DNA of 40,168 nt from a virus. Taxonomy: Duplodnaviria > Heunggongvirae > Uroviricota > Caudoviricetes. The translations under genes were made by a program, and so were the position numbers. The notes under the pieces were generated by a model, which saw only the letters and a list, made by a program, of their open reading frames with translations, was not told where the DNA came from and searched no databases. The DNA is taken from IMG/VR virus record IMGVR_UViG_3300029305_011675. One strand, 5' to 3'. This document shows positions 4,833 to 35,743 of the stretch, piece after piece; within the stretch, counting starts at the first letter, position 1; the number at the start of each line of letters is the position of its first letter.

Positions 4833-4837
4833 CGTTT

Positions 4838-5404: not shown

Positions 5405-5450
5405 AAAATTCATCCTCCATTAAGTGTTTTTCTTTATCTTTTGTATATTT

Positions 5451-5479: not shown

Positions 5480-5515
5480 CTACTTTTTATCAAAATGATG
5501 AAAAGTTTTTTCAAC

Positions 5516-5546
5516 AAAAAAAGAGACGATTACTCGTCTCTTTCTT
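5516..5546. terminator. Hairpin terminator
   Basis: aagagacga / tcgtctctt. Confidence 0.7.
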
Positions 5547-5547
5547 A

Positions 5548-6198: not shown

Positions 6199-6204
6199 AA
6201 CATA

Positions 6205-6813: not shown

Positions 6814-6842
6814 AATCATTCTCCTTTTTTCTTTATACAATT

Positions 6843-6871
6843 ATTATATCACAAAACAAGTCTAATGTCAA
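6843..6871 (-). promoter_or_regulatory. sigmaA promoter TTGACA-17-TATAAT
   Basis: Minus strand ttgaca ttagacttgttttgtga tataat. Confidence 0.8.
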
Positions 6872-6880
6872 CCAAAATAC

Positions 6881-6910
6881 AAAAAATCGGCATTTTGAAT
6901 GCCGATTTTC
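6881..6910. terminator. Hairpin terminator
   Basis: aaaatcggcatt / aatgccgatttt. Confidence 0.75.
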
Positions 6911-6916
6911 TTAATA

Positions 6917-7630
6917 TTATTCTGGGTAACGTTGGTCTTTAATTTTTCTGCTTTCAATGACAAAATCACGATATTCTTCGTAATCCTTAAATTTCACATA
7001 TTTGCCATTATAAACATCGAAACAGTTTTCTCCACGAGCCATTTCGTATTCGTTAGCAGATACAACAATGTAAACCTTTGTGTCGCCCTTATCAGCGAAG
7101 ATAGTCTTAAACAGATATTCTTTGATGTCAACGATGTTATCGACACTCAAACCGCTATCAACGGCGTCAAGAAGCAACCATCTTTCATTTGGTACTTCTT
7201 TTTCATCTTCTTCGCCTTCGCCCCACATTGCTTTTGCGAATGCTCTTGCAAGGGCATCACTATTGCCTTTTACTTCGCCATTCTTGATAAATCCACGAAG
7301 ATTAGAGGCAAGTTTTCCAATGTTCATAACGATGTTTTCGCCTTCAGAAGATGCCATAGCAGTTGCCATAAAACCAAAATCTCCATAAAATCCAGCAGAG
7401 GACACCGCATGTCCACCACCCTCTTTGAGATTATCAAAAGAAAGAACGGGAATGTCTTCCTTTTTACACTGGTCTTTAATCTGTCGAAGAAGAGTTGTTT
7501 TGCCGATTCCGTTGCAACCAACTAAAACAGTCAAACCTTCTTTAATGGTAATAGTTTTCTTTTTATAGAGGTCATAATCCTCTCCATAATATCTTTTATG
7601 CAATGTAAATTTTCTACTCATTCGCATCAC
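6917..7630 (-). CDS. Stand-alone ABC-class P-loop ATPase
   Basis: Walker A GCNGIGKT, signature-like SSEGE, Walker B/D-loop LLLDAVDSGLS. No transmembrane partner adjacent. Confidence 0.75.
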   Translation of the reverse strand: MMRMSRKFTLHKRYYGEDYDLYKKKTITIKEGLTVLVGCNGIGKTTLLRQIKDQCKKEDIPVLSFDNLKEGGGHAVSSAGFYGDFGFMATAMASSEGENIVMNIGKLASNLRGFIKNGEVKGNSDALARAFAKAMWGEGEEDEKEVPNERWLLLDAVDSGLSVDNIVDIKEYLFKTIFADKGDTKVYIVVSANEYEMARGENCFDVYNGKYVKFKDYEEYRDFVIESRKIKDQRYPE

Positions 7631-7653
7631 TCCGTTATCCGTATTTTTTTATT

Positions 7654-7682
7654 ATTATATCACAAAACACCATGCGTGTCAA
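7654..7682 (-). promoter_or_regulatory. sigmaA promoter TTGACA-17-TATAAT
   Basis: Minus strand ttgaca cgcatggtgttttgtga tataat. Confidence 0.8.
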
Positions 7683-7694
7683 CCCTATTTATAC

Positions 7695-7723
7695 AAAAAA
7701 CAACCCGCAAAATGCGGGTTGTT
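7695..7723. terminator. Hairpin terminator
   Basis: aacaacccgca / tgcgggttgtt. Confidence 0.75.
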
Positions 7724-7728
7724 CTACA

Positions 7729-8664
7729 TTATCTTAACTTTGTGCGAACCACTTTGCCGATGCCATACTCATAAAACATACTATAAAAATCTCCGTCATA
7801 TGTGCACTCAAATAATTCGCCGTAAATATCATCATTTTCTTCTGAAGGATTTCTATCGCCAAAACGATATATAAAACCATTCTCCGAAATAATAGGAATA
7901 CAAATGTTTCGTGCTCGTTTTAGTTGTCCATCATCCATAGAAATATCGTTACAAATTACATAATCTGTATCGTCCTCAATTTCGCCTTGAAGTACAGCAC
8001 CTTTTTCTTCAATTAGACGAACAAGTTCATCATAATCATCGAAATCATCTTTTTCTCCAACAATAAGAACTTTAAGACCATTTGCTTCTTCGACATCTTC
8101 ATCAGTATCGTATTCGTCCATCGAAATCGACAACATATAACCATTCTTGGCAGTTACATCTTGAAGATGAATAACTTCGCCCTCGAAACCAGTATTGAGT
8201 TCGATATTAGCATCTTCAATGGATGCATCCATTTCATCAAAACAAGACAATTCATTTTCTAATGTTTCTCTATCCCAATGTTCAACATCGTCCATATCGA
8301 ACTTAATAACGCCTTTCTCAACAAGTAACTTCAAAAATGCAATTACGAAATCAGAGTATTCATCAAGTTCTTTTGCAGGATATACAGATTCAACTTCACA
8401 CAGAATAGTTTCCACAATCCAACTGGAAATAGATGATGCCTCGTCTGGTGTTGCAATCCAATCAGCAATGTCGTCATCATACAAATTCATCTTTTCTCCT
8501 GTTGGTAAAACAATTTCCATACCATCGTTAAATTCTCCATCGTCAGAATTTTCAATTTTCACTCCCAACGATATTAGAAAATTGTACAGTTCTGGATTTT
8601 TAACATTAAATACGAGAAAACTCGAACTGGAACTATTCGTAACAAAACCGCTTCTAAACTTCAT
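7729..8664 (-). CDS. Acidic protein with N-terminal GFVTNSSSSSF motif and C-terminal BRCT domain
   Basis: Begins MKFRSGFVTNSSSSSF. C-terminal LKVLIVGE...ELVRLIEEKGA...TDYVICND...ARNICIPIISE resembles the NAD-ligase-type BRCT domain. Confidence 0.7.
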   Translation of the reverse strand: MKFRSGFVTNSSSSSFLVFNVKNPELYNFLISLGVKIENSDDGEFNDGMEIVLPTGEKMNLYDDDIADWIATPDEASSISSWIVETILCEVESVYPAKELDEYSDFVIAFLKLLVEKGVIKFDMDDVEHWDRETLENELSCFDEMDASIEDANIELNTGFEGEVIHLQDVTAKNGYMLSISMDEYDTDEDVEEANGLKVLIVGEKDDFDDYDELVRLIEEKGAVLQGEIEDDTDYVICNDISMDDGQLKRARNICIPIISENGFIYRFGDRNPSEENDDIYGELFECTYDGDFYSMFYEYGIGKVVRTKLR

Positions 8665-8838
8665 TTAGTTGCCCCCTTGTTGTTATATTTTGCACTATTA
8701 TATTATCACATTTTTTATAATTTTTCAATAGAAGAACCCCCTTTAAAAAAGAAAAAGTTAACCTACATTTTCGCAAAATAACAAAATCGTAGGTTAACTA
8801 TTAGTCGTATTTAGAAACGAATTTTCCTCTCTTACCTA

Positions 8839-9246
8839 TCAAACAAGATTATCTATATGTTTGAGATTATCACAATGTTGAATAGATATATCTCCCCAAA
8901 CTTTTTTAATAGGTCTTTTGCTTTTGATAGCGACAAGATTATTACAATAACCAATTCCGCACTGTGCAATTTCAACAGTATCGACAACACCACGAAATTC
9001 AATTTCTCGCAAAGCGGGACAACCATAGAAAGTTGCATTGGGAATTTTAGTAATGCCCTCTGGTAAACTTACGGTTTCAAACCACTCGTGCATAAAAGCA
9101 TGTTCGTAAATCCATTTAACAGGGAAACCATCAACAACATCAGGGATAATAAGGTCAATGATGTCTTTCTTTTTCAAACCGACAACAGTGATTTCATTAT
9201 TATCGAGTTCGTATTTAATGCCTTTTCGTGTGAATTTCTTTCCCAT
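8839..9246 (-). CDS. Small BspA-type leucine-rich repeat protein
   Basis: IIPDVVDGFPVKWI, SLPEGITKIPNATFYGCPALREI repeats. Confidence 0.7.
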   Translation of the reverse strand: MGKKFTRKGIKYELDNNEITVVGLKKKDIIDLIIPDVVDGFPVKWIYEHAFMHEWFETVSLPEGITKIPNATFYGCPALREIEFRGVVDTVEIAQCGIGYCNNLVAIKSKRPIKKVWGDISIQHCDNLKHIDNLV

Positions 9247-9281
9247 TTTAGTATCCTCTTTCTCTCGTTTTTCTTAAATAT

Positions 9282-9310
9282 ATTATACCACAAAACCACA
9301 TCAATGTCAA
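9282..9310 (-). promoter_or_regulatory. sigmaA promoter TTGACA-17-TATAAT
   Basis: Minus strand ttgaca ttgatgtggttttgtgg tataat. Confidence 0.8.
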
Positions 9311-9345
9311 CACAAAACACATTCTTATAACATAATATTTTACCG

Positions 9346-9374
9346 TTGACATAGAACTTGATATGTGGTATAAT
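9346..9374 (+). promoter_or_regulatory. sigmaA promoter TTGACA-17-TATAAT
   Basis: ttgaca tagaacttgatatgtgg tataat; divergent from the promoter at 9282-9310. Confidence 0.8.
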
Positions 9375-9407
9375 AGAGATAACGAAAAAGCGAAGGGAAG
9401 TGATTTT

Positions 9408-9986
9408 ATCAGTCACTCAAAAAAGAAAATCTCTTACAGAATAGCAGATTTCCCAGATATTGACCCAAACCAAACATATAGAGAAGAGTTTCTTAAGAAA
9501 GAAGGATATACTCTTGTTGCAAACTACAGTGACCTCGGTATTCAATCGCATCCCAGAGATGTAACCAAAACATTTGGTGTACCGATAAATGTCATAGTTA
9601 CAAAGTATAATTACAAGGCAATAAGAAAGTATTTTGATTGTCACGGTCAGTTGAAATTTCACGGAGAAGAAGATGATTATGCTATTTTCTCCGATAACGA
9701 CAAAACAATCAAAGTCCCAATTAACGCAATTTGTAATTTTTATGAACAGTCTGTTAGAGAATTTTTTGTGTTTTCAGAAAAAGAAATTGCATCTCGTCGT
9801 GTAGGCAAAAATACAATTAATTATTTAGAAAGCAGTTTCAAAAAAGAGCGACAATTCGATACAAATAATTACTCATATACTTTTCTTTCATCAAATCAAA
9901 TCGCTGTTTTGGAAGAAAAAGACAAAACTCTTGACCTTATGAGTTATTATTCAGAAGAAGACCCAAAACTATATATATCATATTAA
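9408..9986 (+). CDS. Hypothetical protein, probable non-canonical ATC start
   Basis: The ORF-track ATG (9363) lies inside the promoter spacer. RBS-like AAGGGAAGTGA precedes an in-frame ATC at 9408. Confidence 0.55.
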   Translation: MSHSKKKISYRIADFPDIDPNQTYREEFLKKEGYTLVANYSDLGIQSHPRDVTKTFGVPINVIVTKYNYKAIRKYFDCHGQLKFHGEEDDYAIFSDNDKTIKVPINAICNFYEQSVREFFVFSEKEIASRRVGKNTINYLESSFKKERQFDTNNYSYTFLSSNQIAVLEEKDKTLDLMSYYSEEDPKLYISY

Positions 9987-10015
9987 AAAAGACGGCATCA
10001 AACGATGCCGTCTTT
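9985..10015. terminator. Bidirectional hairpin terminator
   Basis: aaagacggcatc / gatgccgtcttt. Confidence 0.75.
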
Positions 10016-10234
10016 CTGTATAGGTGTGTTCCTACTCACACCCACAATTGTATTTTGGTTCGAATCCAACCTCTGTTTAATAGTAGATTTCCAAAGCACA
10101 ATTTTTGTATCGTTACTATATCACACATTATCACTATTGTCAAGCCTTTTTTACAAAAACAAATTTTAATTTTATTGACAATAAAACGAATGCTATCCAT
10201 AATATATTCAATATGAATGAAAGGATGATTACTT

Positions 10235-11650
10235 ATGAAACTACTAAAATCAAAAGCAGGTTTTACACTAATCGAACTTCTTGTAGTTATAGGTATCCTT
10301 GCAGTCCTCGCCGCTATCGCAATCCCATCAGTTGCTGGACTTATCGATAGAGCGAATGTATCTGCTGACAAAACTAACACCAATGAATATACAAATGCTA
10401 TTGAAAGGTTTGCAAGTGAGTACGAACTCTACTGTCAGGACATTGCATCTGGTGTATTAATAGATACAAATAATGATGGCAAACCAGATAATATGGATGC
10501 CACACAAAACAGAGTCTATAGTGTTACTGGCATAACAACAAGAAATGGTATAGAAACAACAGAAATAGCATATAACGGAACTATCAACAACAATATTCCT
10601 CAACTTTATAGAGACACAAAATATCCCGCAAATGCTTATACACTAAAGAAAATTATTGAGAGTTATACAAAAACATCTTCTTCAACCTTTGAACCAAAAC
10701 AATCAGATATGCATTATTGGTATAGTCCAGATTGTGGTGTAGTTATTTATGCATCACCAAACTCTTCTATCGCAGACAAAAATAAAATGATAACTTCTGG
10801 TGTTGATGCAAAGGGGAGACCACTTGTAGATAACGGAGAAAATGCTACCATTTGGATAAATTTAACAAATGGAGCAAATGACGGAAAACTTGATTATGGT
10901 TCTAATGACCCAGACTTAAATCCAGTCAAAAATGTTCCAAATGATGCAATCTATCTTAAAGAATGTGTTATATGCCCGACATGTCAGTGGACCTTTGCGG
11001 ATGGGAAATACATAAGTGCTTTAAGTTGTGGCCATAGTTACAATTTTCCTGATGTAGATAGACGAGTCTATGTATTTCCAGATACACCTAAAGAAGGCGA
11101 TGTATATATCTATGGAGATTATTACTATTATTATAAGTGGGCAAGATGGTATGTAACAACTATAGATAAAAACAAAACATCATACTCACCAGTTATCGAA
11201 TCCATTAATGAAGTCCCAATATCATCAATGAGAGGTTGTTATGCAGGTTGTGCAAATTTAACAAACATTGATAATTTGATTATACCAGACAATGTTTTTG
11301 ATGTGTATGGAATGTTCAAAGAATGTAAAAACATAACAAACATAGATAACTTTAAACTCCCCCAAAGTGCAAGAATTATTGACTATTTATTCCAAGGATG
11401 TTCTTCTGTTAAGAGGTTTGAAAATTTTGTAATACCATCATCTGTTAAAGATGCAAACGGAGTTTTTGTTGGTTGTTCAAACCTTGAAGGAACAATAACA
11501 ATTAGCAAAGGCACCAATCTCGTTTCTCATGCAGATTGGTTTATGAATGTCGGTGCTTCAAAAATCACTGTTTACGGCGACGACATAGAAGTTGAGAAAA
11601 TAACCTCTAATAGTGCACCAAGAATTGAATTTATAAAAAACCCACAATAA
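10235..11650 (+). CDS. Type IV prepilin-like protein with C-terminal BspA-type LRR region
   Basis: KAG|FTLIELLVVIGILAVLAAIAIP class III signal. C-terminal repeats such as CANLTNIDNLIIPDNV and CSSVKRFENFVIPSSV. Promoter ttgaca-17-cataat at 10175-10203. Confidence 0.8.
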   Translation: MKLLKSKAGFTLIELLVVIGILAVLAAIAIPSVAGLIDRANVSADKTNTNEYTNAIERFASEYELYCQDIASGVLIDTNNDGKPDNMDATQNRVYSVTGITTRNGIETTEIAYNGTINNNIPQLYRDTKYPANAYTLKKIIESYTKTSSSTFEPKQSDMHYWYSPDCGVVIYASPNSSIADKNKMITSGVDAKGRPLVDNGENATIWINLTNGANDGKLDYGSNDPDLNPVKNVPNDAIYLKECVICPTCQWTFADGKYISALSCGHSYNFPDVDRRVYVFPDTPKEGDVYIYGDYYYYYKWARWYVTTIDKNKTSYSPVIESINEVPISSMRGCYAGCANLTNIDNLIIPDNVFDVYGMFKECKNITNIDNFKLPQSARIIDYLFQGCSSVKRFENFVIPSSVKDANGVFVGCSNLEGTITISKGTNLVSHADWFMNVGASKITVYGDDIEVEKITSNSAPRIEFIKNPQ

Positions 11651-11710
11651 TTTTTACAATCAGCCCTCCACCCCTCCCCATAACCCATTTCAACATTGTT
11701 CAAGAATCAC

Positions 11711-11745
11711 AAATTGCCCGAACATTCTGTTCGGGCAATTCTTTT
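11711..11745. terminator. Bidirectional hairpin terminator
   Basis: aattgcccgaac / gttcgggcaatt. Confidence 0.75.
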
Positions 11746-11762
11746 ATATCTCCATTAACTTT

Positions 11763-13349
11763 CTATTCAACACCTGACACTCCCAGTATAGTTTTACTAT
11801 AAGGCACATCGAGTATATGTAAATCAATCTCCAAACCTAAAATCTCCAAAATAAGTTCATCGAATTTTCTTCGATACTCAATAGGAAACTTTACATTTTC
11901 CTGATATTCCCCAGCATTCATCTTTTTAACGATATATTTTGTTTCATCTGCAATTATCTCATCAACCAATTCTTTCATTTTCTGATACTGTTCGTCAGAA
12001 ATAACATCTATAAAAGATGGCATTTTAAGAGCAAGAGAAGACGAGAAATTGATACCGCCATCGAACATTCTCCAGTACCAATAAGCGAAACTGGAATTAA
12101 GCATTGTATAGATATAGTAGAAAGACTTTTCGTCTTTGGCATATATAGTATCTCGCATTGCTCGTTTCATAGGATAAGTAACTCCGCAGGTAAAGTACCT
12201 GCAGGCGTGTGGCATATACACCACCCACCCCTCCCCATCTTGCCCTGTAAAAGAAGACTTTTTCACAGTACACTCTGCAAGAGTAGAATTAGACTTACTA
12301 ACCCATAAATCATACAAACATTCCAAATCCTTTATATGCTTACAATAGATAGGATTACTACCATCAATAATCTGTTTCTTATCCGATAATAAACCATATA
12401 AGAAGTCCCTATTAAGCAAACCTTCTCTTTCACTGTTATGAAACCGAATAAGTTGAGAAGTACGGAAACCCTTATCACCCTCATTATTAACAACTGTAAT
12501 AGTAGTTCTTACAGAGTTTCTATTACTGGACGATAAAGTACCTATTTTATTACCGCAAAAGATATTACCAGGGACATTATCAAAAGAGAAGAAATAACCA
12601 GAATAGTCGTTAAGGAAATACCTCATTTTAGAGAACTTATTACCAGATAGAAAACTATAAGGTGTAATAAGCACGGATGCTTTTGAATAGCGAATAATCT
12701 TCTCCATAAAAGCACCGTATAACTCCCTACATTGCTTTGCAATATCCGTTAAGGTGAAATCACAATTGTTCACATCAATCTTATAATAAGGTGGATTAGA
12801 AATTACCTTGCAATTAGAAGGCAATGCAGTTTTGTCATCCAAGAAATTTCCACAATAACACTTTATATTATCAAAGACTTCTCGACCAAATAAAATGGCG
12901 ATTTTGTGACGGCAAATAAGAAGTGCAAGTTCATCATTGTCATACAAATAAACATTACCGTTCAATAAAATATCTCTTGCATTATCTATTCTGCTTAATA
13001 CGGAAATAATAAGGTTGCCAGTACCGCAGGCAACATCGCCAATATTCTCACCTTTTAACTCATTAAAGAAATCTGCCATAACATTTGCTACATCGGAAGG
13101 AGTATAGTAGATGCCTGCTTCCTGCTTACTCTTTTTATTAACAAAGGCAAGTCCTAACTCATAAAGCATTCCGAAGTTATCTATATGAATAATAGATGTA
13201 TTATCGGGTTTCTTGTTGATATTCTCTTTTATAATAGCATACCATACTTCTTTGATACCGTAAGTGGTAATATCGTTATAGTATTGTTCTTCGGTATAGT
13301 TATCGAAGTTAATCTTTGGTGTGTTTTGGTATATAAAGAGATTTATCAT
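11763..13349 (-). CDS. N6-adenine DNA methyltransferase (solitary)
   Basis: GIYYTP, motif I DVACGTGN, motif IV SNPPY, LITPYS. Confidence 0.8.
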   Translation of the reverse strand: MINLFIYQNTPKINFDNYTEEQYYNDITTYGIKEVWYAIIKENINKKPDNTSIIHIDNFGMLYELGLAFVNKKSKQEAGIYYTPSDVANVMADFFNELKGENIGDVACGTGNLIISVLSRIDNARDILLNGNVYLYDNDELALLICRHKIAILFGREVFDNIKCYCGNFLDDKTALPSNCKVISNPPYYKIDVNNCDFTLTDIAKQCRELYGAFMEKIIRYSKASVLITPYSFLSGNKFSKMRYFLNDYSGYFFSFDNVPGNIFCGNKIGTLSSSNRNSVRTTITVVNNEGDKGFRTSQLIRFHNSEREGLLNRDFLYGLLSDKKQIIDGSNPIYCKHIKDLECLYDLWVSKSNSTLAECTVKKSSFTGQDGEGWVVYMPHACRYFTCGVTYPMKRAMRDTIYAKDEKSFYYIYTMLNSSFAYWYWRMFDGGINFSSSLALKMPSFIDVISDEQYQKMKELVDEIIADETKYIVKKMNAGEYQENVKFPIEYRRKFDELILEILGLEIDLHILDVPYSKTILGVSGVE

Positions 13350-13394
13350 GGAATGTTTCGCCTGCCTTTATTTTTGTGGTTGTTACATAGAAAT

Positions 13395-13423
13395 ATTATA
13401 GTATATTTTGGTAGATTTGTCAA
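13395..13423 (-). promoter_or_regulatory. sigmaA promoter TTGACA-17-TATAAT
   Basis: Minus strand ttgaca aatctaccaaaatatac tataat. Confidence 0.75.
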
Positions 13424-13800
13424 TTGGCATAGGGATTATTGTATATTAGATGGTTGTTGGAATCGTAAACAGGAATAGTTTGGGAGGGAGGACTGGTTTA
13501 GGAGGCATGTTTGCTTTTTTTAAGGGGTCGTGATGGAAGGAAAGGAGGATGGACAAAAAGAAACCCAAAGGCGAATAGTGCCTTTGGGTGTTATTTTTCG
13601 GAAGATTAAAAGTGAGGAAGGCTGGGAATGTTTTTTGAATGGGTTAAACCTTTCGAGAGGGTTGTGAAATGATAATGTTTATTTTTTTGAGTGGGTTATG
13701 AGTGGTGGTTGGGTGGGTGGAAAAATGTTGAAATATTTTTTGATATTAGCGAAAAAATGATTTACAATTTTTTCATCAATTAAAGAAGGGGGTCTTTTTT

Positions 13801-14829
13801 ATGACTAAAAGACTTTTGTCATTGCTTTTAGCAATTATTTTAGTTTTCTCCGTTACTGGTTGTGCAACAAGTAAAAACGACACAAAACCAAACGAAGAAA
13901 CAACAAACACAGAGACATCTACAGAACCTTCTGACACGACACCAGATGACACACAAACAGACACAACTGTTACAGAACCATCTGATACCACAACAGAAGA
14001 AGATGCCACAACACCAACAGAATCAACCACAGAACAAGAGACCAAACCAAGTCAAGATACAAATAAGGAAACAGAAAACACTACAGAAAAAGAACAAGAA
14101 AAAGTAAATAACAACAAAACAGAAACAGAAAAAGAAAATACGACTTCCAGTTCTGACCGTGTTGTAGTAAAGGATGAAGTTGAAGTGAAGCAATCTAATG
14201 TTGGTCTTCAAGTATTCGATAGTAAGATGATTAGTTATTTGGAACAAAAATACGGTGTCAAAGAAAATATGTTTGCTTCTCCTCTTTCTCTAAAATATAT
14301 GCTTACTATGGCAGCAATTGGTTCTAATGGAGAAACTCAAAAAGAACTTTTACAGGTTTTGGGTTTCAAATCTATTAAAGAGTGTGAAGATTGGGCAAAA
14401 TCTTACCTCGAAATGACGAAACCACTCGATAATCTCATTACAGAAACTCCTCCGCAGGAAGATGGTATTATCGCATCACCTGGTATTATTGGTGGTTCGG
14501 ACAAAACAACTCTCAATATTGCAAACTCCGTATGGCACAATGCAAATAAGGGTGGTAAAATCAAAACAACCTTTATAAATGCTATAAACAAAGCATGCGG
14601 TGCAGAAGTATTCAATGTAAACGGAAATAAATTAAAGAACGAAATCAATACTTGGATTGAAAAAGAAACAAATGGAATGATTAAGAATATGGTTGATGAT
14701 TCCGTTGCCAATAAAAACACAGTTTTGATAAATGCTCTGTATTTAAAAGCACAATGGACTTCGAAATTCAGCAAAGGTCTTACACACAAAGACAATTTCA
14801 AATGCACCAAAGAATCGGCGGGGTCATAA
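13801..14829 (+). pseudogene. Serpin-domain lipoprotein, C-terminally truncated
   Basis: Lipobox VTG|C and T/E-rich linker. Serpin motifs SPLSLKYML, IANSVW, INTWIEKETNGMI, VLINALYLKAQW. Stops shortly after and has no reactive-centre loop. Confidence 0.8.
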
Positions 14830-15008
14830 AAACGTTGTGGAATATCTGCCCATAAATATTGAGACTCTATCATATCGAAGTTGTAAACACTATTGCAGTC
14901 TCTATATTTGTACAAATATCGTGGGTACTTATCTATTTGAATGGTTATTGTTTTCTCATCACTAATCCCAATTATTTGGTCGAGTTTTTGTTTGAAATAT
15001 TTATCCAT
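14800..15008 (-). pseudogene. 5' fragment of a DUF2971-like gene
   Basis: GGAGG RBS. YLYKYR...LWAD...FYDPAD motif, after which the reading frame runs into antisense serpin sequence. Confidence 0.6.
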
Positions 15009-15020
15009 AAAACCCTCCTA

Positions 15021-17120
15021 TTAAGCAAATAACTTCTTGATTCTCTCTGATACGGAATTCTCCAATGTTGCAAACCTTGCCTCAAGTTCTTCACTTGCAG
15101 TGGGTTGCTTATACTGATAGAAATATTTGGTGAATGGGATTTCTGCACCAACACGAATCACAGGATTCTTCTTGGTCATATCTTCTTCCCAGAACCACTT
15201 CGCATCAGGAACATGAGGAAGAACTTCTCTTGCCATATAATTTTCAATATCTTCATCCCACTTAACGATTTCTGTATCTTTTGTTGTCTTATCATAAATA
15301 ATTTCTCCCTTGTTTTTGCCCTTGGGTTCTCTCTGAATTTCGGCTTCTTTATCCATCACAGATAAGCCATCGGCAATCTTTGCAATAAGTTTAGCATCAA
15401 TGCCAGTATCAGCAAGAATATCATTCAAAACAGGCATGAAATCATTTACAGAAAGGTGTTTAATTGTACTAATGGCATTATTTAATGCTTCGAGAACGGC
15501 ATCATAGAGTGGTTTGTTCTTTCTAAAACCATCCAACTTTGTTTGTTCCTTGCCACTAATAGAAACACCCTTGTTTTCTAATTCAGCAACCTTTGCTTCA
15601 TCGTAAAGACCATTCAATGCACCAGATTGAAGCATATTAGCAATACTTTTTTCTGTGATGGAATAACTTCTCTGAAGCGGTTGCATTACTGCATATTCCT
15701 TATAAATAAACTCTGTATTGTCGTAAATCTTAACGACATCGGTATTGACAAAATCAGCATACAACTTTGTAATCATTGCTCTATCCTCTGGCAAGAATTC
15801 GTTTTTCTTATTGCCCAGAGGTTTTCTTAATTTATGGCAAATGGCAGATGCATCAATTAACTGAATCTTGCCTTTCCTTTCAGGTCTCTTGTTCTTGGAA
15901 AGTAACCAAATATAAGTTGCGATGCATGTATTATAAAAGGAATCGGTAGGTAACTGAATAATTGCTTCAATCAAATCGTTTTCAAGCAACCATCTACGAA
16001 TTTGAGATTCGCCAGATGCTGTGCCACCAGTAAACAATGGAGAACCATTGGAAATAATAGCAGCACGACCAACATTATCATCCATCTTATGAACTGCCGA
16101 CTGCATAAAGAGCAACTGTGAGTCGCCACCACCAGGAAGACCTGCTCCCCAACGACCAACCATACCCTTTGCATGTTCTGTCTTAACTGCATCTTCCTGA
16201 CCTGCCTTGGCACTTTCTCCAGACCAAGGTGTGCCAAAAGGAGGATTTTCCAACAAGAATCTCATCTTGGTTTCAGGGAAACAATCATTCTTCAAAGTAT
16301 CTGTATGACGGAAGTTCTCTGCATTCTGACCTTTGATAAGCATTTCAGCAAGACCAACAGCATAAGAAGGACCCATAAATTCCTGACCAAACAAACGAAC
16401 ATCGGCAGTAGGATTGAAGTGCTTCAAATATGTATAAGCAGTAGACAACATACCGCCAGTACCACATGCTTGGTCACAAACGGTCAAAATTTTCTTATCA
16501 TCAAAGATATCATCGCAACCTTCTGCAATCAAGAGAGATACACACAGTTTTACTATGTCACGTCCAGTGTAGAACTGACCTGCATCAACATTCTGATAAA
16601 AACGACCAATCAGATTTTCAAAGATATAACCCATCTTAATGCTATCGTAAGTAGAAGGATTAAGGTCAAGTTCGGAGAATGCCTTTGCAACAGAATACAA
16701 ACAACCGTCCTTGTCCATCTTTTCGATGTGTTTCTTCATTTCTAACTCATTTAAGATGTCCTGAACATTATTGGAGAATCCAGCAATATATGCATTAAAG
16801 TTGGAGGCGATATGGTCAGCATCATTGCAAAGTTCTTTCAAATCAAATTCACTGGTATTATAAAACTGATATCCAGATATACGGCACATTGCCTTGTAAG
16901 GATACAGTGGATTTTCCTTAAATTTATTAACTACTGCTTGCTTTGTATCAGCAAGAGTGCATTCAAAACGGCGAATGATAACCATAGGGATGATTACATC
17001 ACCATACTTGTCGGGCATATAAGAACCCCTTAATTTGTTTGCGATAGACCAAATAAAGTTAGCCTCCGCAGTTACATCTACGGGAGTTTCGTCCCAAATC
17101 ATATTTTTAATATCAGTCAT
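15021..17120 (-). CDS. hsdM: Type I restriction-modification methyltransferase subunit M
   Basis: ANFIWSIANKLRG N-terminus, GQFYT, DQACGTGGML, NPPFG, NGSPLFTG. No hsdS or hsdR in the window. Confidence 0.9.
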   Translation of the reverse strand: MTDIKNMIWDETPVDVTAEANFIWSIANKLRGSYMPDKYGDVIIPMVIIRRFECTLADTKQAVVNKFKENPLYPYKAMCRISGYQFYNTSEFDLKELCNDADHIASNFNAYIAGFSNNVQDILNELEMKKHIEKMDKDGCLYSVAKAFSELDLNPSTYDSIKMGYIFENLIGRFYQNVDAGQFYTGRDIVKLCVSLLIAEGCDDIFDDKKILTVCDQACGTGGMLSTAYTYLKHFNPTADVRLFGQEFMGPSYAVGLAEMLIKGQNAENFRHTDTLKNDCFPETKMRFLLENPPFGTPWSGESAKAGQEDAVKTEHAKGMVGRWGAGLPGGGDSQLLFMQSAVHKMDDNVGRAAIISNGSPLFTGGTASGESQIRRWLLENDLIEAIIQLPTDSFYNTCIATYIWLLSKNKRPERKGKIQLIDASAICHKLRKPLGNKKNEFLPEDRAMITKLYADFVNTDVVKIYDNTEFIYKEYAVMQPLQRSYSITEKSIANMLQSGALNGLYDEAKVAELENKGVSISGKEQTKLDGFRKNKPLYDAVLEALNNAISTIKHLSVNDFMPVLNDILADTGIDAKLIAKIADGLSVMDKEAEIQREPKGKNKGEIIYDKTTKDTEIVKWDEDIENYMAREVLPHVPDAKWFWEEDMTKKNPVIRVGAEIPFTKYFYQYKQPTASEELEARFATLENSVSERIKKLFA

Positions 17121-22352: not shown

Positions 22353-23066
22353 TTACTCGATATTGGAATACTTTTCGTTCAAAGCAAGGTCAACGAGAGA
22401 AATCTCATTGTATGCGGGAGCATCAATGTTTCTTTGAGAGGCGAAAGAGTAATCACAATCAGTAAGCATCTTGCCAAGGGCATTAAGATAAAGCATATCG
22501 AACTCATACACAGTATCCTCGCCATCGTAATCTGGATATTCACTTACATAGAACTTCTTGTCGTAGTTCAGATAACGATAACCAGTGTCCTTTGCAAAAC
22601 CCTCTGCAATAAGACCCTTTGCAGGAATCTCATTTCGCTGACTGAAGAAAGAAAATGCCTTCAGTTTTGCGATAACGTCGGGATTTGGAGAGTGGAACTG
22701 GTCATTTGATACATCGTATGCAGTCAATTCGTTGTCGCCAAACTCCAGACTATGTGCATAGAGTTTGATGAGAGCAGTCATGAGTTCGTGACTGTAAATC
22801 TCTCCATTGGATGCGATATAGAAACCGCCAACCTCGACATGATTATCTACGATGTAATCGACAATTTCAGCAATTTCCTTGCTGTAGAGAGTAGGTTCGC
22901 CACCAGTGAAAGTGATGCAACCAATGTAACTTACCTGATTGATGATATGCTTAACATATTCAATATCAATCGTTACATCTTCCATAGCACCGCGCAGGCA
23001 ATGAGCACATTGACGGTTGCATTTTCTTCCTACCTCGACGATAAATTGGCTAATTTGTGCTTTCAT
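22353..23066 (-). CDS. Radical SAM protein (short, no SPASM domain evident)
   Basis: CNRQCAHC (CX3CX2C), FTGGEP, ASNG, SNDQFH; AAGGAGG RBS. Confidence 0.85.
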   Translation of the reverse strand: MKAQISQFIVEVGRKCNRQCAHCLRGAMEDVTIDIEYVKHIINQVSYIGCITFTGGEPTLYSKEIAEIVDYIVDNHVEVGGFYIASNGEIYSHELMTALIKLYAHSLEFGDNELTAYDVSNDQFHSPNPDVIAKLKAFSFFSQRNEIPAKGLIAEGFAKDTGYRYLNYDKKFYVSEYPDYDGEDTVYEFDMLYLNALGKMLTDCDYSFASQRNIDAPAYNEISLVDLALNEKYSNIE

Positions 23067-23149
23067 ATTATTCCTCCTTAATATTGTGTTTAATATACCA
23101 ATACAAAAACAATATCATATGGACTTTATTTTTTCAAAAAATAAAATAA

Positions 23150-23656
23150 AAAAGGACTTAACCTTTCGATTAAGTCCTAATTTATACAAACAATTAAGTT
23201 TTGTACTTTATTATTTTGCCATTCGTTTCCGAATGCCCTTACGGTCATCATACTCATTTTCAACCCAAGTATGAAGGCAAGTTAGTGGAGAAGTTCAACC
23301 CATTCATCTCCAATATACCACAAGCACCATTCTTGGTGCACAATCGAAAGGCGAACCTTTCGGTGAGGAAACCTGCGGTAAGTGTCTCCTTGTAACTATT
23401 CGACAAGCGAATAGCAATGCAATCAGGACCGAAACTAATCCTTCATTATCGCATCCCCACTTTTTCCGCACCTTCCATTCAGTGTTCCCCAATACGTCCA
23501 CATCTCAATAGATGCTTCGTGTAGAAGTTCCCAAGGAATTTCCAATGTTTCCAAAGAAGTTCAGGTCAAAATCCAAATTACTTCTATTTGCCACGACCTT
23601 CAACTCATTTTTCAACCCAGTCGAAGGAGATTGCTCGATAACATTTTTGTTATCGT
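23150..23656 (-). ncRNA. Candidate large structured non-coding RNA (about 500 nt)
   Basis: Perfect promoter upstream (23663-23691), terminator downstream (23144-23183), many stems and GNRA loops, and no credible ORF. Confidence 0.65.
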
Positions 23657-23662
23657 TCTGCT

Positions 23663-23691
23663 ATTATAAAACATAAAATTACATTTGTCAA
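23663..23691 (-). promoter_or_regulatory. sigmaA promoter TTGACA-17-TATAAT
   Basis: Minus strand ttgaca aatgtaattttatgttt tataat. Confidence 0.8.
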
Positions 23692-23711: not shown

Positions 23712-24413
23712 TTATAAACTCTTGTCGCACTCAACATAGAATTGACACATATCGTCAAGTCTCAAGCAACCAAGTCTCTGTATTTTTGCACATCCGCAAT
23801 CAATATTTATCTTTTTCCCATCATCGTAAGTGAGAATTTCATAAAAACCAAAAGGATGCCATTTACCACTTGGTGTATGACCATGTACAAATATATAATC
23901 GGAAGTGTTCTCCCAAAATCTCAACTCTCCTCTATTCCAGAGGATGTTTTCACTTTTAACTTCATTTTCAAGAGTTTCTTCAAAACTATCTCCATCTCTC
24001 ATACAAAGAGCAGCATGGGATAAAAAGAATTTTTTATCACCAATTTCCACAAACTCGTACCATTTAAGTTCGGCAATATAATCAATAATTTCTTGTCGAA
24101 CTTCTTTTGATAATTCAAAGAATTCTCTCTTTGTGGTATAACCACCGTTCCACTCCCACATATCGTTTGCTTCTGCTCTTTTCTCTTCGTCTGTGCTTGC
24201 AGAATCGAGCATCATTTTTTCATGATTACCCATCAAAAGAACAATATTGTCTGCATACATTGTGTGTCTTAAGACCTTGATTGGATTTTGCCCACGGTCA
24301 ATGACATCCCCAAGAATATATAATTTATCTTTGTGGGAGAAATTTATTTTTAGTAACATTTCGAGATATTCGTCGTATCTACCGTGAATATCCGACATAA
24401 CATAGGTGGACAC
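23712..24413 (-). CDS. Calcineurin-like metallophosphoesterase (PPP/lambda-phosphatase type)
   Basis: SDIHG, GDVIDRG, GNHE, SHA, HGHTP, IDCGC; GTG start after AAAGGGGTG. Confidence 0.85.
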   Translation of the reverse strand: MSTYVMSDIHGRYDEYLEMLLKINFSHKDKLYILGDVIDRGQNPIKVLRHTMYADNIVLLMGNHEKMMLDSASTDEEKRAEANDMWEWNGGYTTKREFFELSKEVRQEIIDYIAELKWYEFVEIGDKKFFLSHAALCMRDGDSFEETLENEVKSENILWNRGELRFWENTSDYIFVHGHTPSGKWHPFGFYEILTYDDGKKINIDCGCAKIQRLGCLRLDDMCQFYVECDKSL

Positions 24414-24431
24414 AACGAACACCCCTTTCTT

Positions 24432-24872
24432 TTAGCATAGATTACTCGCACCGATTCTATCGGCACCAATATCAATATATTTTTTAGCATCTACAAGAGT
24501 TCTAATACCTCCCGATGCTTTAATTTTAAGGTCAAAATTGTTTCTATCAATCATTTCTTTCATAATAGAAACTGCCTCTGGTGTTGCACCGTGTTCTGCA
24601 AAACCAGTAGATGTCTTAATGTAGTCAGCACCACATTCCGCACAAATCTGACACATCTTTTTAATCTGCCATTCCGTGAGACAACAGGTTTCGACAATAA
24701 CTTTTAGAATTACAATGTCGCAACCTCTTTTGTGGTCATCAATCGCTTCAACGATTGTTCTAATCTCTTCTGCAACTTTTGCAAAAGTAGAACAATCCCA
24801 ATTTGGAAAACCAACAACAGTGCAAACTTTTACATCACTACATTCAAGATGTGCCTTTGCCTGTGATACATA
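24432..24872 (-). pseudogene. deoC: deoC 3' part (deoxyribose-phosphate aldolase), also carrying an in-frame internal deletion
   Basis: Manual translation gives YVSQAKAHL..VKVCTVVGFP..LKVIVET..GADYIKTSTGF..IKASGGIRT..GADRIGAS. Confidence 0.85.
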
Positions 24873-25090
24873 ATGACATCCTCTACCGCTTCAAGCGGTA
24901 GTTTCCATTACGAACAACCCTAACGGTCTAACCACGGGTTGTTCATTTTTTATAGAAACCACCATTAAAGTGGAATTACAAGGTTTCTGCTTCTTCCATC
25001 ACTGCCAATTGAGCATAACTCAACTGGTCTTACACGATGTCCACAGACGTAAGTTCCCGTGTGTCCCACGGTACTGTTTATATAATTAGG
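24873..25090 (-). ncRNA. Predicted TnpB omega-RNA (reRNA) scaffold
   Basis: About 210 nt between the tnpB stop and the IS right end, as established for IS200/IS605 tnpB loci. Boundaries are inferred. Confidence 0.55.
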
Positions 25091-26243
25091 CAGTGAGCAA
25101 TCTCTTGCCTTCGTTCAATATGTTGACAGAAGCATTAAAATCTCTATCGTGGGCAGTATTGCAATTGGGACATATCCAATTTCTAACGGAGAGATTTTTT
25201 ACTTCTGCATTTTTGTATCCACAGCAACTGCAGATTTGTGAACTTGGGTAGTAGGTATCAACCTGTATGAAAGTTTTACCATACCATTCAGATTTATATT
25301 TTAATTTAGATATAAATGAATACCAACCAAGTTCGCCAATGTTTTTATGCAATTCCTTACTGTAAGGCAAAGAATTGTCCATTAGCATTTTCTTAACATT
25401 AAGATGCTCTACCGCAATTAAGTCATATTCTCTTACTATATCAAGAGATAACTTATGAAGAAAATCTTCTCTACAGTTCGCATCTTTTCCACAGAATTTT
25501 GCTAATTTTAGTTTTGCTTTCTCTCTATTTTTTGAACCCTTTTGCTTTTTAGAGAGTTGCCGATAGAGTCTTCTCTTTTTCTTTTCGTTTTGCTTGATAA
25601 AATTGGGTTTTTCGATAACTGTTCCATCGGAAAATGTAGTGAAATGACTAATTCCGATATCGATACCTACTTCTTTGCCAGTTTTATCAAACTGTTCAAT
25701 TCTATCTGCACGACGAATAGTAAGAGTTACATAAACTTTACCAGATTTCGTTTTTTTAACAGTCGCAGATTGAATAGTGCCGTTAGGTATCGCTTGATTA
25801 GGTTTGGTTCTCACCCAACCAAATTTTCCCAACTTAATTTTGTTACCATCAAAACGAATGCCATTTGTAACATTCATTATACGAAAACTCTGGTTACTGT
25901 GTTTGCTGCGGTATTTTGGTAAACCGCATTTCTTTTGATAAAAGTGTTGCATTGTGGTCCAATAGTCCTGCAACGCTTGTTGTAAACAAGTAGCATCTGC
26001 TTCTTTAAGAAATGGGTTTACTTTCTTTAAATTTGGTAATTCTTTTGCCAAATTTACAAAATTATACTGTTGCAAGTTATTCTTGTACCTATCGGTATTA
26101 AAATCAATTGCCCAGTTATATATAAAACGAGAGTGACCAAAATATTTATTGAGAAGTTCTAATTTTGAAACGGGTATGTCTATACTGCATTTAATATTAA
26201 CAGTATTCGTTCCATTGCTTTTGAAAGAACCTTTCTTAAACAT
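25086..26243 (-). CDS. tnpB: RNA-guided endonuclease TnpB
   Basis: HSRFIYNWA HTH, RuvC GIDIG / AVEHL / HDRDFNA, zinc ribbon CSCCG..CPNC. Own promoter ttgaca-17-tataat. Confidence 0.9.
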   Translation of the reverse strand: MFKKGSFKSNGTNTVNIKCSIDIPVSKLELLNKYFGHSRFIYNWAIDFNTDRYKNNLQQYNFVNLAKELPNLKKVNPFLKEADATCLQQALQDYWTTMQHFYQKKCGLPKYRSKHSNQSFRIMNVTNGIRFDGNKIKLGKFGWVRTKPNQAIPNGTIQSATVKKTKSGKVYVTLTIRRADRIEQFDKTGKEVGIDIGISHFTTFSDGTVIEKPNFIKQNEKKKRRLYRQLSKKQKGSKNREKAKLKLAKFCGKDANCREDFLHKLSLDIVREYDLIAVEHLNVKKMLMDNSLPYSKELHKNIGELGWYSFISKLKYKSEWYGKTFIQVDTYYPSSQICSCCGYKNAEVKNLSVRNWICPNCNTAHDRDFNASVNILNEGKRLLTA

Positions 26244-26434
26244 TTTTATCACTCCTTTCATAAGTTTTATATGTATAAATTATACTTAAAAAGTAAGAAA
26301 ATGTCAATAGAATCCAATAAACAAACAGCACCGCTACCGCTCTACTGTTTGTTTAAGATATGCGGTCTTGCACTTCAAGTGCGACCGCTGTGCCTGCATC
26401 CACCGTCAAAGACGGATGTTTTGACACTTAAATA

Positions 26435-26560
26435 ATAAGAAGGAACATATACACTTACTGTCTTAAGATATTTTACCTTTTTGCAAAGGTTAATAATATC
26501 TTTTGATGTTGTAATTCTTTTTAATATAGTTAAATCTACTTTACCCCAAATTCTTCCCAT
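26435..26560 (-). pseudogene. deoC: deoC 5' part
   Basis: KVDLTILK..TSKDIINLC..SVYVPSY matches the DeoC N-terminus (IDHTLLK..DI..LC..SVC.PP.Y). Promoter ttgaca-17-tataat at 26593-26621. Confidence 0.75.
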
Positions 26561-26714
26561 ATAAGCCTTCTAAATGCTATTTTGTTGTTTTTATTATACC
26601 ATATTCTCGAAACCGTGTCAACCAAAAAAGAAAACTTTTTGCAAAAATAGTAGTTGACATTTAGAACACTTTATGGTAAAATTAAGAAAAATAATTCGTG
26701 AAAAGGTGACAAAT

Positions 26715-31724: not shown

Positions 31725-31753
31725 TTGACATTGAAAGTGATTTATGGTATAAT
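31725..31753 (+). promoter_or_regulatory. sigmaA promoter TTGACA-17-TATAAT
   Basis: ttgaca ttgaaagtgatttatgg tataat; drives the radical SAM operon. Confidence 0.8.
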
Positions 31754-35714: not shown

Positions 35715-35743
35715 TTGACAAAACGAAAAATTTATGTTATAAT
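35715..35743 (+). promoter_or_regulatory. sigmaA promoter TTGACA-17-TATAAT
   Basis: ttgaca aaacgaaaaatttatgt tataat. Confidence 0.8.

Follow-up and report, generated by a model that had tools for sequence, protein, structure and literature searches.

Introduction

On the minus strand of the DNA analysed here (a stretch of 40,168 nt, called the window below), about 500 nt lie between a gene for a metallophosphatase and one for a radical SAM protein. The question raised by this locus is whether these nucleotides encode a structured RNA and, if so, to which kind it belongs and what it could do. The first-pass annotation had described the region as a large ornate non-coding RNA with repeated loops, belonging either to a known class or to a new one. 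Only a small number of bacterial and phage RNAs reach 500 nt and have an elaborate conserved fold, and the majority, ROOL and GOLLD among them, have no known function.

A predicted transcription unit with its own promoter and terminator

The perfect sigmaA promoter and the terminator that had been read around the region were both recovered (Table 1). With the start set 7 nt past the -10 box and the end set in the T-run after the terminator, the inferred unit is about 510 nt long. The sequence AAATACTTGACAA and a TATAAT or TATACT box are retained in all full-length homologues (the subgroup E sequence ends before the promoter position), although identity over the transcribed part has fallen to 43-50%; AAATAC upstream of the promoter is also conserved. 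Perfect TTGACA-17-TATAAT promoters occur ten times in the window, this one included. The terminator is found at the same position in every subgroup, with stem sequences that differ and show compensatory changes. The GC enrichment of the region was likewise reproduced (0.42-0.47 versus 0.27-0.34 in the flanks).

Table 1. Positions of the RNA gene, its predicted structural elements and its neighbours in the window.
Feature	Position	Strand	Remarks
Metallophosphatase gene	23712-24422	minus	Calcineurin-like, ApaH/PrpA-like type; upstream neighbour
Promoter of RNA gene	23663-23691	minus	TTGACA-17 nt-TATAAT, 12/12 match
Inferred transcript	23145-23656	minus	About 510 nt; ends inferred from promoter and terminator
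5' hairpin CGAUAAC/GUUAUCG	23636-23655	minus	Folds; subgroup A only; identical in L020
Closing helix of 5' domain, 5' strand GCAAUC	23629-23634	minus	Partner 23419-23424
Hairpin with GGGUUGA copy 1	23597-23627	minus	9-bp stem; motif 23612-23618
Local hairpin AGAAGU/ACUUCU	23555-23585	minus	GAAAUGU/ACAUUUC in L020, a compensatory replacement
Rod	23464-23552	minus	Apical hairpin CAUCU-AUUG-AGAUG (23501-23514) over four symmetric 4x4 internal loops
Five further hairpins	23324-23457	minus	23425-23457, 23395-23415, 23366-23390, 23345-23362 (UUCG-capped), 23324-23339
Closing helix of 5' domain, 3' strand GAUUGC	23419-23424	minus	Partner 23629-23634
Hairpin with GGGUUGA copy 2	23287-23311	minus	Motif 23295-23301
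3' junction	23216-23280	minus	Closed by UUGCC/GGCAA; holds three hairpins
Junction hairpin with GGGUUGA copy 3	23248-23274	minus	Motif 23260-23266
Junction hairpin, GUAA-capped	23237-23244	minus	
Junction hairpin, GAAA-capped	23220-23235	minus	
Intrinsic terminator	23143-23178	minus	11-bp stem 23178-23153, GAAA loop, then T-run
Promoter-like site of radical SAM gene	23109-23137	minus	TTGAAA-17 nt-TATTGT, TG extension; downstream of terminator
Radical SAM gene	22353-23066	minus	237 aa; Pfam PF04055 and PF13353; downstream neighbour

The absence of a reading frame, also claimed at first sight, stands. Comparison of homologues reveals no conserved ORF within the ~510-nt stretch. Substitutions between the window and the homologous locus L020 are distributed over the three phases as 45/51/34, without three-base periodicity, compared with 35/18/100 at codon positions 1/2/3 of the radical SAM gene. 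A coding reading was rejected on these two grounds.

The sense strand folds with a minimum free energy (MFE) of -154 kcal/mol (z = -4.8). The antisense strand has a weaker MFE (-127) and a strong z-score (-7.05), so that the z-score alone cannot assign the strand. The orientation was assigned from the conservation of promoter and terminator, from G.U pairs and from GNRA and UUCG loops. A hairpin-rich region that folds well on the antisense strand too, with short repeated motifs of a kind that can be DNA-binding sites, might also act as DNA (an origin, a packaging site or a protein-binding array) or be a functionless, decaying remnant. Both appear extremely improbable to us. All GGGTTGA copies lie on a single strand, the GNRA and UUCG loops occur on the sense strand only, and the supported helices are rich in G.U pairs that would become A.C on the other strand (UG in four of six sequences at one apical pair). 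Moreover, promoter and terminator are conserved and tandem G.A is an RNA motif, while decay fits poorly with the persistence of the RNA in five subgroups so diverged that their flanking proteins share only 53-55% identity. A promoter and terminator of its own, no coding signal and the compensated helices described below are what is generally looked for in a large structured non-coding RNA, and the comparison of homologues indicates that a folded non-coding RNA is genuinely encoded here, by a gene predicted to be independently transcribed.

A constant slot in a giant phage-like element

In all five subgroups the gene order is uracil-DNA glycosylase, DeoC, metallophosphatase, the RNA and the radical SAM gene, and the annotated position directly upstream of the latter is correct, the gene adjoining the RNA on its downstream side. 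The carriers are metagenomic contigs of a giant phage-like element (one contig reaches 679 kb), and the family is known from seven distinct sequences in five diverged subgroups, all from metagenomic assemblies. The radical SAM protein could be placed in no specific subfamily, as NCBIfam gives weak matches far under the cut-offs, and none of the annotated neighbours comes from a known RNA-binding family.

A location that is always between these two genes, on the same strand, would suit an action in cis: the RNA could be a long leader or riboswitch serving the radical SAM gene, or the metallophosphatase mRNA could carry it as a structured 3' UTR. Because no terminator was found between the metallophosphatase stop codon and the RNA promoter, read-through transcripts of the phosphatase gene would carry the RNA. 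We nevertheless regard action in cis as highly improbable. Its own perfect promoter is retained by all full-length homologues, the radical SAM gene is preceded by a strong terminator and then by a separate site resembling a promoter, and 510 nt with 15 or more helices is far above known leaders. Furthermore, the close relative L022 keeps both flanking genes, just 98 nt apart, without the RNA, and radical SAM homologues of similar identity are found in other contexts that also lack it. The block TTTTTGAAA on the 3' side of the terminator is conserved in all relatives, including L022. From this locus we infer that the RNA is an accessory cassette of the element, apparently dispensable in at least one close relative. 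An omega-RNA of a nearby TnpB, or of an IscB-like gene in L024, was also considered and discarded, as relatives without either gene still have the RNA.

The family is rare: its members come only from metagenomic contigs of one narrow clade, and its general reach is limited accordingly. A scan of JGI metagenomes with the metallophosphatase alignment gave 59 loci, among which only L067, 99% identical to the window, has the RNA. A search of genome contigs with the radical SAM protein returned one unrelated alphaproteobacterial match and a protein search of INPHARED one weak and unannotated match. The region itself matched nothing when GenBank phages and PLSDB plasmids were searched by blastn. Pattern scans of IMG/VR with two or three motif copies, two conserved 20-22-mers and a rod-core signature found no family member, the 17 and 35 matches to the motif patterns being coding low-complexity repeats.

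A covarying architecture of at least 15 helices

The collection of homologues and the examination of covariation that had been proposed at the outset yielded five subgroups and strong covariation: two independent pairs of sequences were compared, giving 18 compensatory pairs for the window against L020 and 21 for L027 against L031. Within the ~510 nt, 15 or more helices can be counted. The covariance model R1, made from subgroups A to D, recovers the left-out subgroup E where it should lie (22.5 bits, E = 0.006); over 200 kb the one additional match scores at chance level (14.2 bits, E = 0.98) and lies right beside the subgroup E hit.

Subgroup A starts with a hairpin of its own, whereas the other subgroups begin instead with a strand of a long-range closing helix. 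In the window, the long-range helix GCAAUC/GAUUGC closes a domain of ~210 nt, RNAalifold pairing columns 23-28 with 234-239; in L020 one of its pairs has changed from A-U to G-C and one from G-C to G-U, and subgroups B, C and D each fold a comparable closing helix. Among the five further hairpins of Table 1, the first three show compensatory changes relative to L020, and the last two fall within a 47-nt block identical to it. The stem of the second motif hairpin, GGAGA/UCUCC, is GAAGAU/AUCUUC in L020 with the loop motif unchanged. In the 3' junction, compensatory changes affect the closing helix, the motif hairpin and the GNRA hairpin.

Most stems that the first-pass annotation had read by eye survive this comparison. 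Compensation in L020 was observed for catct/agatg, ctattcg/cgaatag, ggagac/gtttcc, ggaga/tctcc, tcatact/agtatga, ttgcc/ggcaa and the terminator, as well as for attcg-GAAA-cgaat, which reads ATTCA-GTAA-TGAAT there. Four regions are invariant between the two loci (cgataac/gttatcg, ccttcgact/agttgaagg, gcacca/tggtgc and acc-GAAA-ggt), and the last can alternatively fold as CGAAAGG-UUCG-CCUUUCG. Two stems lack support: covariation favours the local hairpin AGAAGU/ACUUCU over tagaagt/acttcta, and the GAUUGC strand of the proposed gcgat/attgc pairs with GCAAUC near the 5' end instead.

An uncatalogued family of a known kind

The proposed search against Rfam matched no family, RNase P, tmRNA and introns included. 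With Rfam 15, nothing reached the gathering score in the window, no meaningful match appeared in the 1-kb region at E <= 10, and five or six homologous loci gave no match either (at E <= 5 on six loci). The sole trace was a 29-nt tmRNA fragment at chance level (8 bits, E = 0.87). As no Rfam 15 model matches, the RNA is, to the extent that such a search can tell, not ROOL, GOLLD, OLE, RNase P, tmRNA or an intron. For ROOL (RF03087) this holds at the gathering score and at permissive E-values, with no tRNA islands nearby; for GOLLD (RF01998) it holds in the window and the homologous loci; for OLE (RF01071), which is associated with oap genes in extremophilic anaerobes, the neighbouring genes are unrelated as well. 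RNase P RNA, tmRNA, group I and II introns, 6S and SRP RNA were absent at the gathering score.

ROOL and GOLLD, which phages and prophages carry in Bacillota as well as in other bacteria, often near tRNA gene islands, remain the closest in kind, being large (about 500-800 nt), intricately folded non-coding RNAs with many conserved loops. The present locus differs in that ARAGORN finds no tRNA gene in the 40-kb window and the neighbours are the metallophosphatase and radical SAM genes; neither family is known to have a rod of four phased NGAN x NGAN loops or a repeated GGGUUGA loop. Type III antitoxin RNAs consist of tandem direct repeats of ~34-36 nt upstream of an endoribonuclease toxin gene. 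This identity was rejected, the motif copies here being 7-nt elements in unrelated hairpins 28-350 nt apart, with a radical SAM gene downstream.

Five syntenic subgroups, compensatory changes, an invariant loop motif and the match of the covariance model to the held-out subgroup all support a new conserved structured family. Of the two possibilities first offered, a known class is thus excluded by search, and comparative analysis points to a family that had not been catalogued before and that belongs to an already known kind, that of large ornate RNAs borne by phages. What it adds to them is a readable design, in which two features stay constant while the rest drifts: a heptamer, GGGUUGA, shown three or four times, and a rod with four phased NGAN x NGAN loops under an AUUG-capped hairpin. 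Such a simple design gives direct experimental handles.

A rod with four phased tandem-G.A loops

In the window, the internal loops of the rod are one CGAA x GGAC followed by three GGAA x GGAA. Their general form is NGAN x NGAN, mostly GGAA x GGAA, with a spacing of about one helical turn, and the short helices between them carry pyrimidine-pyrimidine mismatches at their centres. Four units with near-identical mirror spacing recur in 7/7 sequences, and the centre is GA x GA, flanked by helices, in 23 of the 28 units. Cognate arms pair at 72%, compared with 47% for non-cognate arms, a value reached in 0 of 20,000 resamples. In the rod-core alignment 81% of cells pair (59% when shuffled, 36-51% when slid), and 13 of 15 pairs have changed on both sides. 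The unconstrained MFE structure of subgroup B already contains the rod.

The core of GA opposite GA resembles the tandem sheared G.A loops of kink-turns and many rRNA loops, and a sheared geometry is predicted here, although the defining 3-nt bulge of a kink-turn is missing and the loops are symmetric 4x4. We know of no description of four tandem-G.A loops in phase, one per helical turn.

Proteins of the CsrA type can be sequestered by RNAs that bear numerous GGA sites, no such RNA being known in Bacillota, and every subgroup has a central 90 nt with six to eight GGA motifs at a spacing of 9-12 nt. A sponge of the CsrB/RsmZ type, in which eight GGA-containing blocks would bind CsrA dimers and the GGGUUGA loops would be secondary, is in our opinion very improbable. 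The blocks form mirror-image pairs with matching spacing, the intervening segments are complementary and covary, and wherever an outer G.A is replaced both facing positions switch, to C.C or U.U and never to a mixture, so that the GGA blocks face each other in a duplex rather than lying in loops or linkers. In addition, the usual A before GGA is absent, the context being mostly U/G-GGAA, and no CsrA gene is present among the 36 larger ORFs, a set that lies above the size of a CsrA ORF (~70 aa).

An invariant heptamer and its possible partners

A third copy of the loop motif in another stem, as had been suspected, does exist: on the minus strand, copies of GGGTTGA begin at 23618, 23301 and 23266. 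Just one further copy is present on either strand of the 40-kb window, and it overlaps an unrelated -35 box. The repetition of near-identical loops in two distant hairpins is real, and their separation is 352 nt instead of the ~370 nt first given. A hairpin with the motif carries the sequence GGGUUGAA. Across the family, 22 sites show GGGUUGA without variation; every one lies on the sense strand, and each RNA has three to four. The next base is usually A, this eighth position not being invariant. Uninterrupted stems of at least 6 bp are capped by 18 of 24 sites, compared with 14% of random positions. These stems are mostly of 8-9 bp and wholly different in sequence between subgroups, the motif-bearing loops range from 8 to 16 nt, the distance from motif to stem varies, and in subgroups C and D the 5' copy lies in a single-stranded linker. 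With so loose a loop context, a linear, single-stranded reading of the motif fits better than a precisely shaped docking loop.

No Watson-Crick 5-mer complementary to the motif is present in any of the seven RNAs, so the GGGUUGA sites are predicted to stay free. An internal pseudoknot or kissing contact was rejected: strict 5-mers occur in none, and wobble-tolerant complements are at chance level and missing in subgroups B and E. Because the eighth base and the loop contexts vary, UUGAA was not read as a T-loop either. Some type I CRISPR repeats end in ...GGAUUGAAAC; mimicry of such a 3' handle is kept as a low-probability lead only, since what is conserved here is the GGG end rather than the AAAC end.

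Our favoured reading, to which we give an even chance, is that the RNA is a trans-acting scaffold presenting copies of a single-stranded motif, a role proposed because the modelled scaffold displays multiple identical sites. Presumably made early from a host-type promoter, the RNA would use its rod and junctions as a rigid frame to hold several identical GGGUUGA sites out to a partner reading that sequence, and would thereby act as a multivalent decoy, sponge or assembly platform. Candidate partners are an RNA-binding protein present in several copies and an RNA with the sequence UCAACCC. Against this reading, a transcript bearing UCAACCC was not found in the 40-kb window, and with its four phased loops the rod exceeds in elaboration what a simple sponge would require; it may instead have a structural or assembling role. 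The CsrB/RsmZ RNAs, whose repeated motif often lies in hairpin loops and titrates a protein, are similar in their fast sequence drift and in retaining many copies of one short single-stranded motif, as the GGGUUGA hairpins do. They differ in the motif itself and as simple sponges without the covarying, rigid multi-helix architecture and the face-to-face GGA blocks seen here. A second parallel is RNAIII of S. aureus (RF00503), a highly structured trans-acting RNA of ~514 nt in which a C-rich UCCC loop, repeated on three hairpins, base-pairs with several targets; one motif is likewise displayed on several hairpins of one large RNA. In contrast to RNAIII, our RNA matches no such model, has no embedded ORF such as hld and no UCAACCC target in the window, and its motif, being G-rich, cannot pair with Shine-Dalgarno sequences.

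The partner could also be the RNA itself, self-assembling without protein like the OLE, ROOL and GOLLD RNAs, the GGGUUGA loops docking on the tandem-G.A loops of neighbouring rods to form a multimer, filament or cage. ROOL and GOLLD, which are encoded by phages and prophages, provide a precedent, as both form RNA-only nanocages through loop contacts seen by cryo-EM (10.1101/2024.12.08.627333). The element studied here is phage-like and its RNA large and ornate, and the counts are similar, with three to four invariant loops for four internal loops (four of each in subgroups B and E). The one-turn phasing would place the four internal loops on a single face of the rod. Since the GGGUUGA loops have no Watson-Crick partner inside the RNA, any contact that they make would be non-canonical or in trans. 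We consider such RNA-only self-assembly unlikely, as the loops vary in size and in motif-stem distance and sometimes dispense with a hairpin, which is unusual for docking with fixed geometry, no covariation is visible between loop variants and internal-loop variants, and subgroup D varies two internal loops and none of its GGGUUGA loops. The stronger version, in which these loops and the neighbours' four tandem-G.A loops would constitute an undescribed loop-receptor pair building an RNA-only filament, lattice or cage, is more doubtful still. If the loops bind a host factor, the giant phage-like element would encode an RNA decoy; if they dock on the rod, the family would represent a new way of building RNA assemblies.

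A literature search for the heptamer returned microRNA papers only. As a minor observation, GGGUUG is complementary to the conserved CAACCC of 16S rRNA, over these six nucleotides only.

A separately promoted non-coding unit

The stretch between the metallophosphatase and radical SAM genes holds a conserved, independently promoted, structured and non-coding unit, in which a heptamer (GGGUUGA) and a long hairpin with facing GGAA-like blocks (the rod) are held constant. The first-pass annotation had described a perfect promoter and a terminator enclosing about 500 nt that are richer in G+C than the flanks, with a radical SAM gene directly downstream, and each of these points stands: the two signals (listed in the table) span ~510 nt, with a G+C content of 0.42-0.47 versus 0.27-0.34 in the flanks. 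Ten perfect promoters are present in the 40-kb window versus 0.06 expected, all with a spacer of 17 nt and seven with a TG two bases ahead of the -10 box. The genome seems to consist of cassettes that are promoted separately, and the RNA gene thus adds another self-contained one. The radical SAM gene has its own promoter-like site past the RNA terminator, and a cis-acting leader or UTR is a less likely reading of the RNA. Other neighbours encode DeoC, Ung, an ABC-2 transporter and pilin-like proteins; none of the annotated neighbourhood genes points to a partner for the RNA.

Coordinates of the RNA gene signals, the rod and the neighbouring genes in the window
Feature	Position	Strand	Remarks
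Promoter, sigma-70-type	23691..23663	minus	TTGACA-17-TATAAT, 12/12 match
Intrinsic terminator	23178..23153 (stem)	minus	11-bp stem and T-run, downstream of the promoter
Rod	23464-23552	minus	nt 105-193 of the RNA; one long hairpin whose two strands are the GGAA run
Metallophosphatase	23712-24422		calcineurin-like, ApaH/PrpA-like; upstream neighbour
Radical SAM protein	22353-23066		small, no specific subfamily; downstream neighbour
Ten perfect promoters	6843-6871, 7654-7682, 9282-9310, 9346-9374, 13395-13423, 23663-23691, 26279-26307, 26593-26621, 31725-31753, 35715-35743		

The absence of an RBS-led open reading frame, also claimed at first sight, is corroborated by comparison with L020, a close relative. 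Substitutions in the RNA are spread over positions modulo 3 (45/51/34) whereas those in the adjacent radical SAM gene follow codon positions (35/18/100), and no stop-free stretch is conserved between homologues, which rules out a coding reading. The RNA folds at -154 kcal/mol (z = -4.8). Since the antisense strand reaches z = -7.05 with an energy of only -127 kcal/mol, the strand is not told by the z-score alone. A pairwise covariation analysis, of the kind proposed at the outset, revealed 18 predicted pairs altered on both sides with pairing retained between the window and L020, and 21 between L027 and L031, two more distant relatives. Most of the stems initially read by eye were confirmed, while two of them (tagaagt/acttcta and gcgat/attgc) are better replaced. 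A 47-nt block (23324-23370), spanning the UUCG-capped and GCACCA/UGGUGC hairpins, is identical in the window and L020 RNAs, which overall differ at about one aligned position in four; it has no recognisable counterpart in subgroups B-E.

Relatives and family status

A search of 5.8 billion proteins with the radical SAM protein as query produced homologues of graded similarity, whose contigs were then compared. In five subgroups, the metallophosphatase and radical SAM genes are separated by a gap of 570-650 nt within a constant gene order (Ung, DeoC, metallophosphatase, gap, radical SAM gene, ABC-2 transporter). Subgroup A comprises the window, L067 and L020/L021 (radical SAM identity to the window of 81% for L020), followed by B (L023-L026, 54%), C (L027/L028, 55%), D (L031, 53%) and E (L126/L127, cut at the 5' end, 53%). 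Seven distinct RNAs, all metagenomic, make up the set. Between subgroups, the gap sequences share only 43-50% identity. All full-length ones nevertheless keep the promoter (AAATACTTGACAA and -10 box), the subgroup E sequence ending before it, and all subgroups have a terminator, GGGTTGA in several copies and GGAA blocks in a run. In the contig L022 (72% protein identity), both flanking genes are present and lie just 98 nt apart, with a plain terminator in between. Because more distant relatives carry the RNA, it was most likely lost in L022 and is, by the same comparison, most likely dispensable. The RNA is absent beside radical SAM homologues found in other gene contexts. Besides, the window radical SAM protein shares its 90% cluster with a near-identical protein (P0090) found on 19 contigs of up to 678,911 bp; the element with this locus thus probably measures ~0.7 Mb or belongs to a larger entity.

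The Rfam comparison suggested by the first reading was performed with Rfam 15 and yielded no match at the gathering score in the window, only chance-level fragments at E<=10 in the 1-kb region, and no match on five and six homologous loci. ARAGORN predicted neither tRNA nor tmRNA genes in the window, neither the GenBank phages nor the PLSDB plasmids yielded a blastn match, and five pattern scans of IMG/VR returned no family member. In JGI metagenomes, the sole carrier is a copy 99% identical to the window. The RNA represents a new family of a type already known, namely the large ornate RNAs that phage-like elements carry, and we have not seen its architecture described.

Architecture of the RNA and its rod

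From 5' to 3', the window RNA starts with a hairpin, followed by a 5' domain that the long-range helix GCAAUC/GAUUGC closes around the first motif hairpin, a local hairpin and the rod; such a helix closes the domain in subgroups B, C and D too. Five further hairpins precede the second motif hairpin, then a junction closed by UUGCC/GGCAA that holds the third motif hairpin, a small hairpin and a GNRA-capped hairpin, and finally an A/U-rich hairpin and the terminator.

At first sight, the GGAA run evokes a CsrB-like sponge. The blocks instead make up both strands of a single hairpin, and a CsrA-type sponge is a less likely explanation of the RNA. Each arm bears four 4-nt blocks, left facing right, with mirror-image spacing (9, 12, 12 on the left and 11, 12, 9 on the right in the window); spacings in the other subgroups are equal or near-identical, with an apex always of 15-16 nt. 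The centre of the 28 block units is GA facing GA in 23 cases. The first outer facing pair is G.A in 22 units, C.C in three and U.U in three, and the other is A.G in 24, U.U in two, G.G in one and G.U in one. When one side departs from a purine, the facing side nearly always does so too, as expected if two blocks lie opposite each other. The inter-block segments are complementary, since cognate arms pair at 72% versus 47% for non-cognate ones (0/20,000 resamples reach 72%), and their mismatches lie at segment centres and are mostly pyrimidine-pyrimidine. At the rod tip, a 5-bp stem carries an AUUG loop; all five pairs vary between subgroups, four of them on both sides, and all cells are paired. 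The blocks recur every 11-12 nt, close to one turn of an A-form helix, so that the four internal loops should lie on one face of the rod.

In the core alignment, 81% of cells pair versus 59% after shuffling (0/500) and 36-51% with partners slid, and 13 of the 15 pairs are altered on both sides. Twelve paired cells are G.U and would read A.C on the opposite strand. A covariance model of the core trained on subgroups A-D recovered subgroup E, which had been held out, at the expected position (22.5 bits, E=0.006); its sole other match in 200 kb, both strands, was at chance level (E=0.98) and adjoins the subgroup E match. In subgroup B, the rod is already the unconstrained minimum-energy fold.

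The repeated heptamer and a possible function

The near-identical loops noticed initially proved to be a general feature: GGGUUGA occurs three or four times per RNA and is invariant at 22 sites in the seven RNAs. The base after it is A at 18 of these sites and the base before is never G. All of these sites are on the sense strand, and a DNA-level element is a less likely reading. On both strands of the 40-kb window, three of the four GGGTTGA occurrences fall within the RNA, the fourth falling in a -35 box. Uninterrupted stems of 6-11 bp are capped by 18 of 24 sites (a count including three variant copies in subgroup E) versus 14% of random positions. These stems share no sequence between subgroups, the loops range from 8 to 16 nt, the motif-to-stem distance is variable, and in subgroups C and D the 5' copy is located in a linker immediately past a hairpin. 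All subgroups have two adjacent motif hairpins in the 3' part. None of the seven RNAs contains a Watson-Crick 5-mer complement to the motif, and wobble-tolerant complements occur at chance frequency, with none in subgroups B and E, which gives the sites the appearance of free, single-stranded recognition elements.

We infer that the RNA acts in trans, the heptamer copies being its putative working sites. Because the loop context is loose, their reader would recognise a linear single-stranded sequence and could be a protein or an RNA with UCAACCC. On this sequence evidence, we give roughly even weight to the RNA being a multivalent decoy, sponge or platform, for which the rod may be a scaffold only. 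Self-assembly, with the rod as a receptor for the loops of other molecules, agrees with the known behaviour of ROOL and GOLLD and is compatible with the equal loop and internal-loop counts in subgroups B and E; we consider it rather unlikely.

Other genes of the locus and the window

The deoC gene (deoxyribose-phosphate aldolase, 24438-26560) is interrupted by a ~1.5-kb insertion carrying a TnpB gene (25086-26261; OrfB_IS605 and Cas12f-like TNB domains), whereas relatives have an uninterrupted gene (219 aa in L020). DeoC residues 1-53 are encoded at 26560-26402 and residues 42-218 at 24875-24438, and DNA comparison shows the loss of ~100 nt as well. Another IS200/605-type element arrived independently at the locus in the subgroup B relative L024 (1-451), with an IscB-like gene (RRXRR and HNH, 418 aa) at a position where its near-identical sister contigs L023 and L026 carry a uracil-DNA glycosylase gene. 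Finally, region 117-17120 contains a dense DNA-modification set (EcoRI-type adenine methylase, GmrSD/HNH protein, four N6_Mtase/Eco57I-type methylases and HsdM). A serpin (13801-14829) and a BspA-type leucine-rich repeat protein are encoded there too, and the whole looks like an arsenal for anti-restriction and host interaction.
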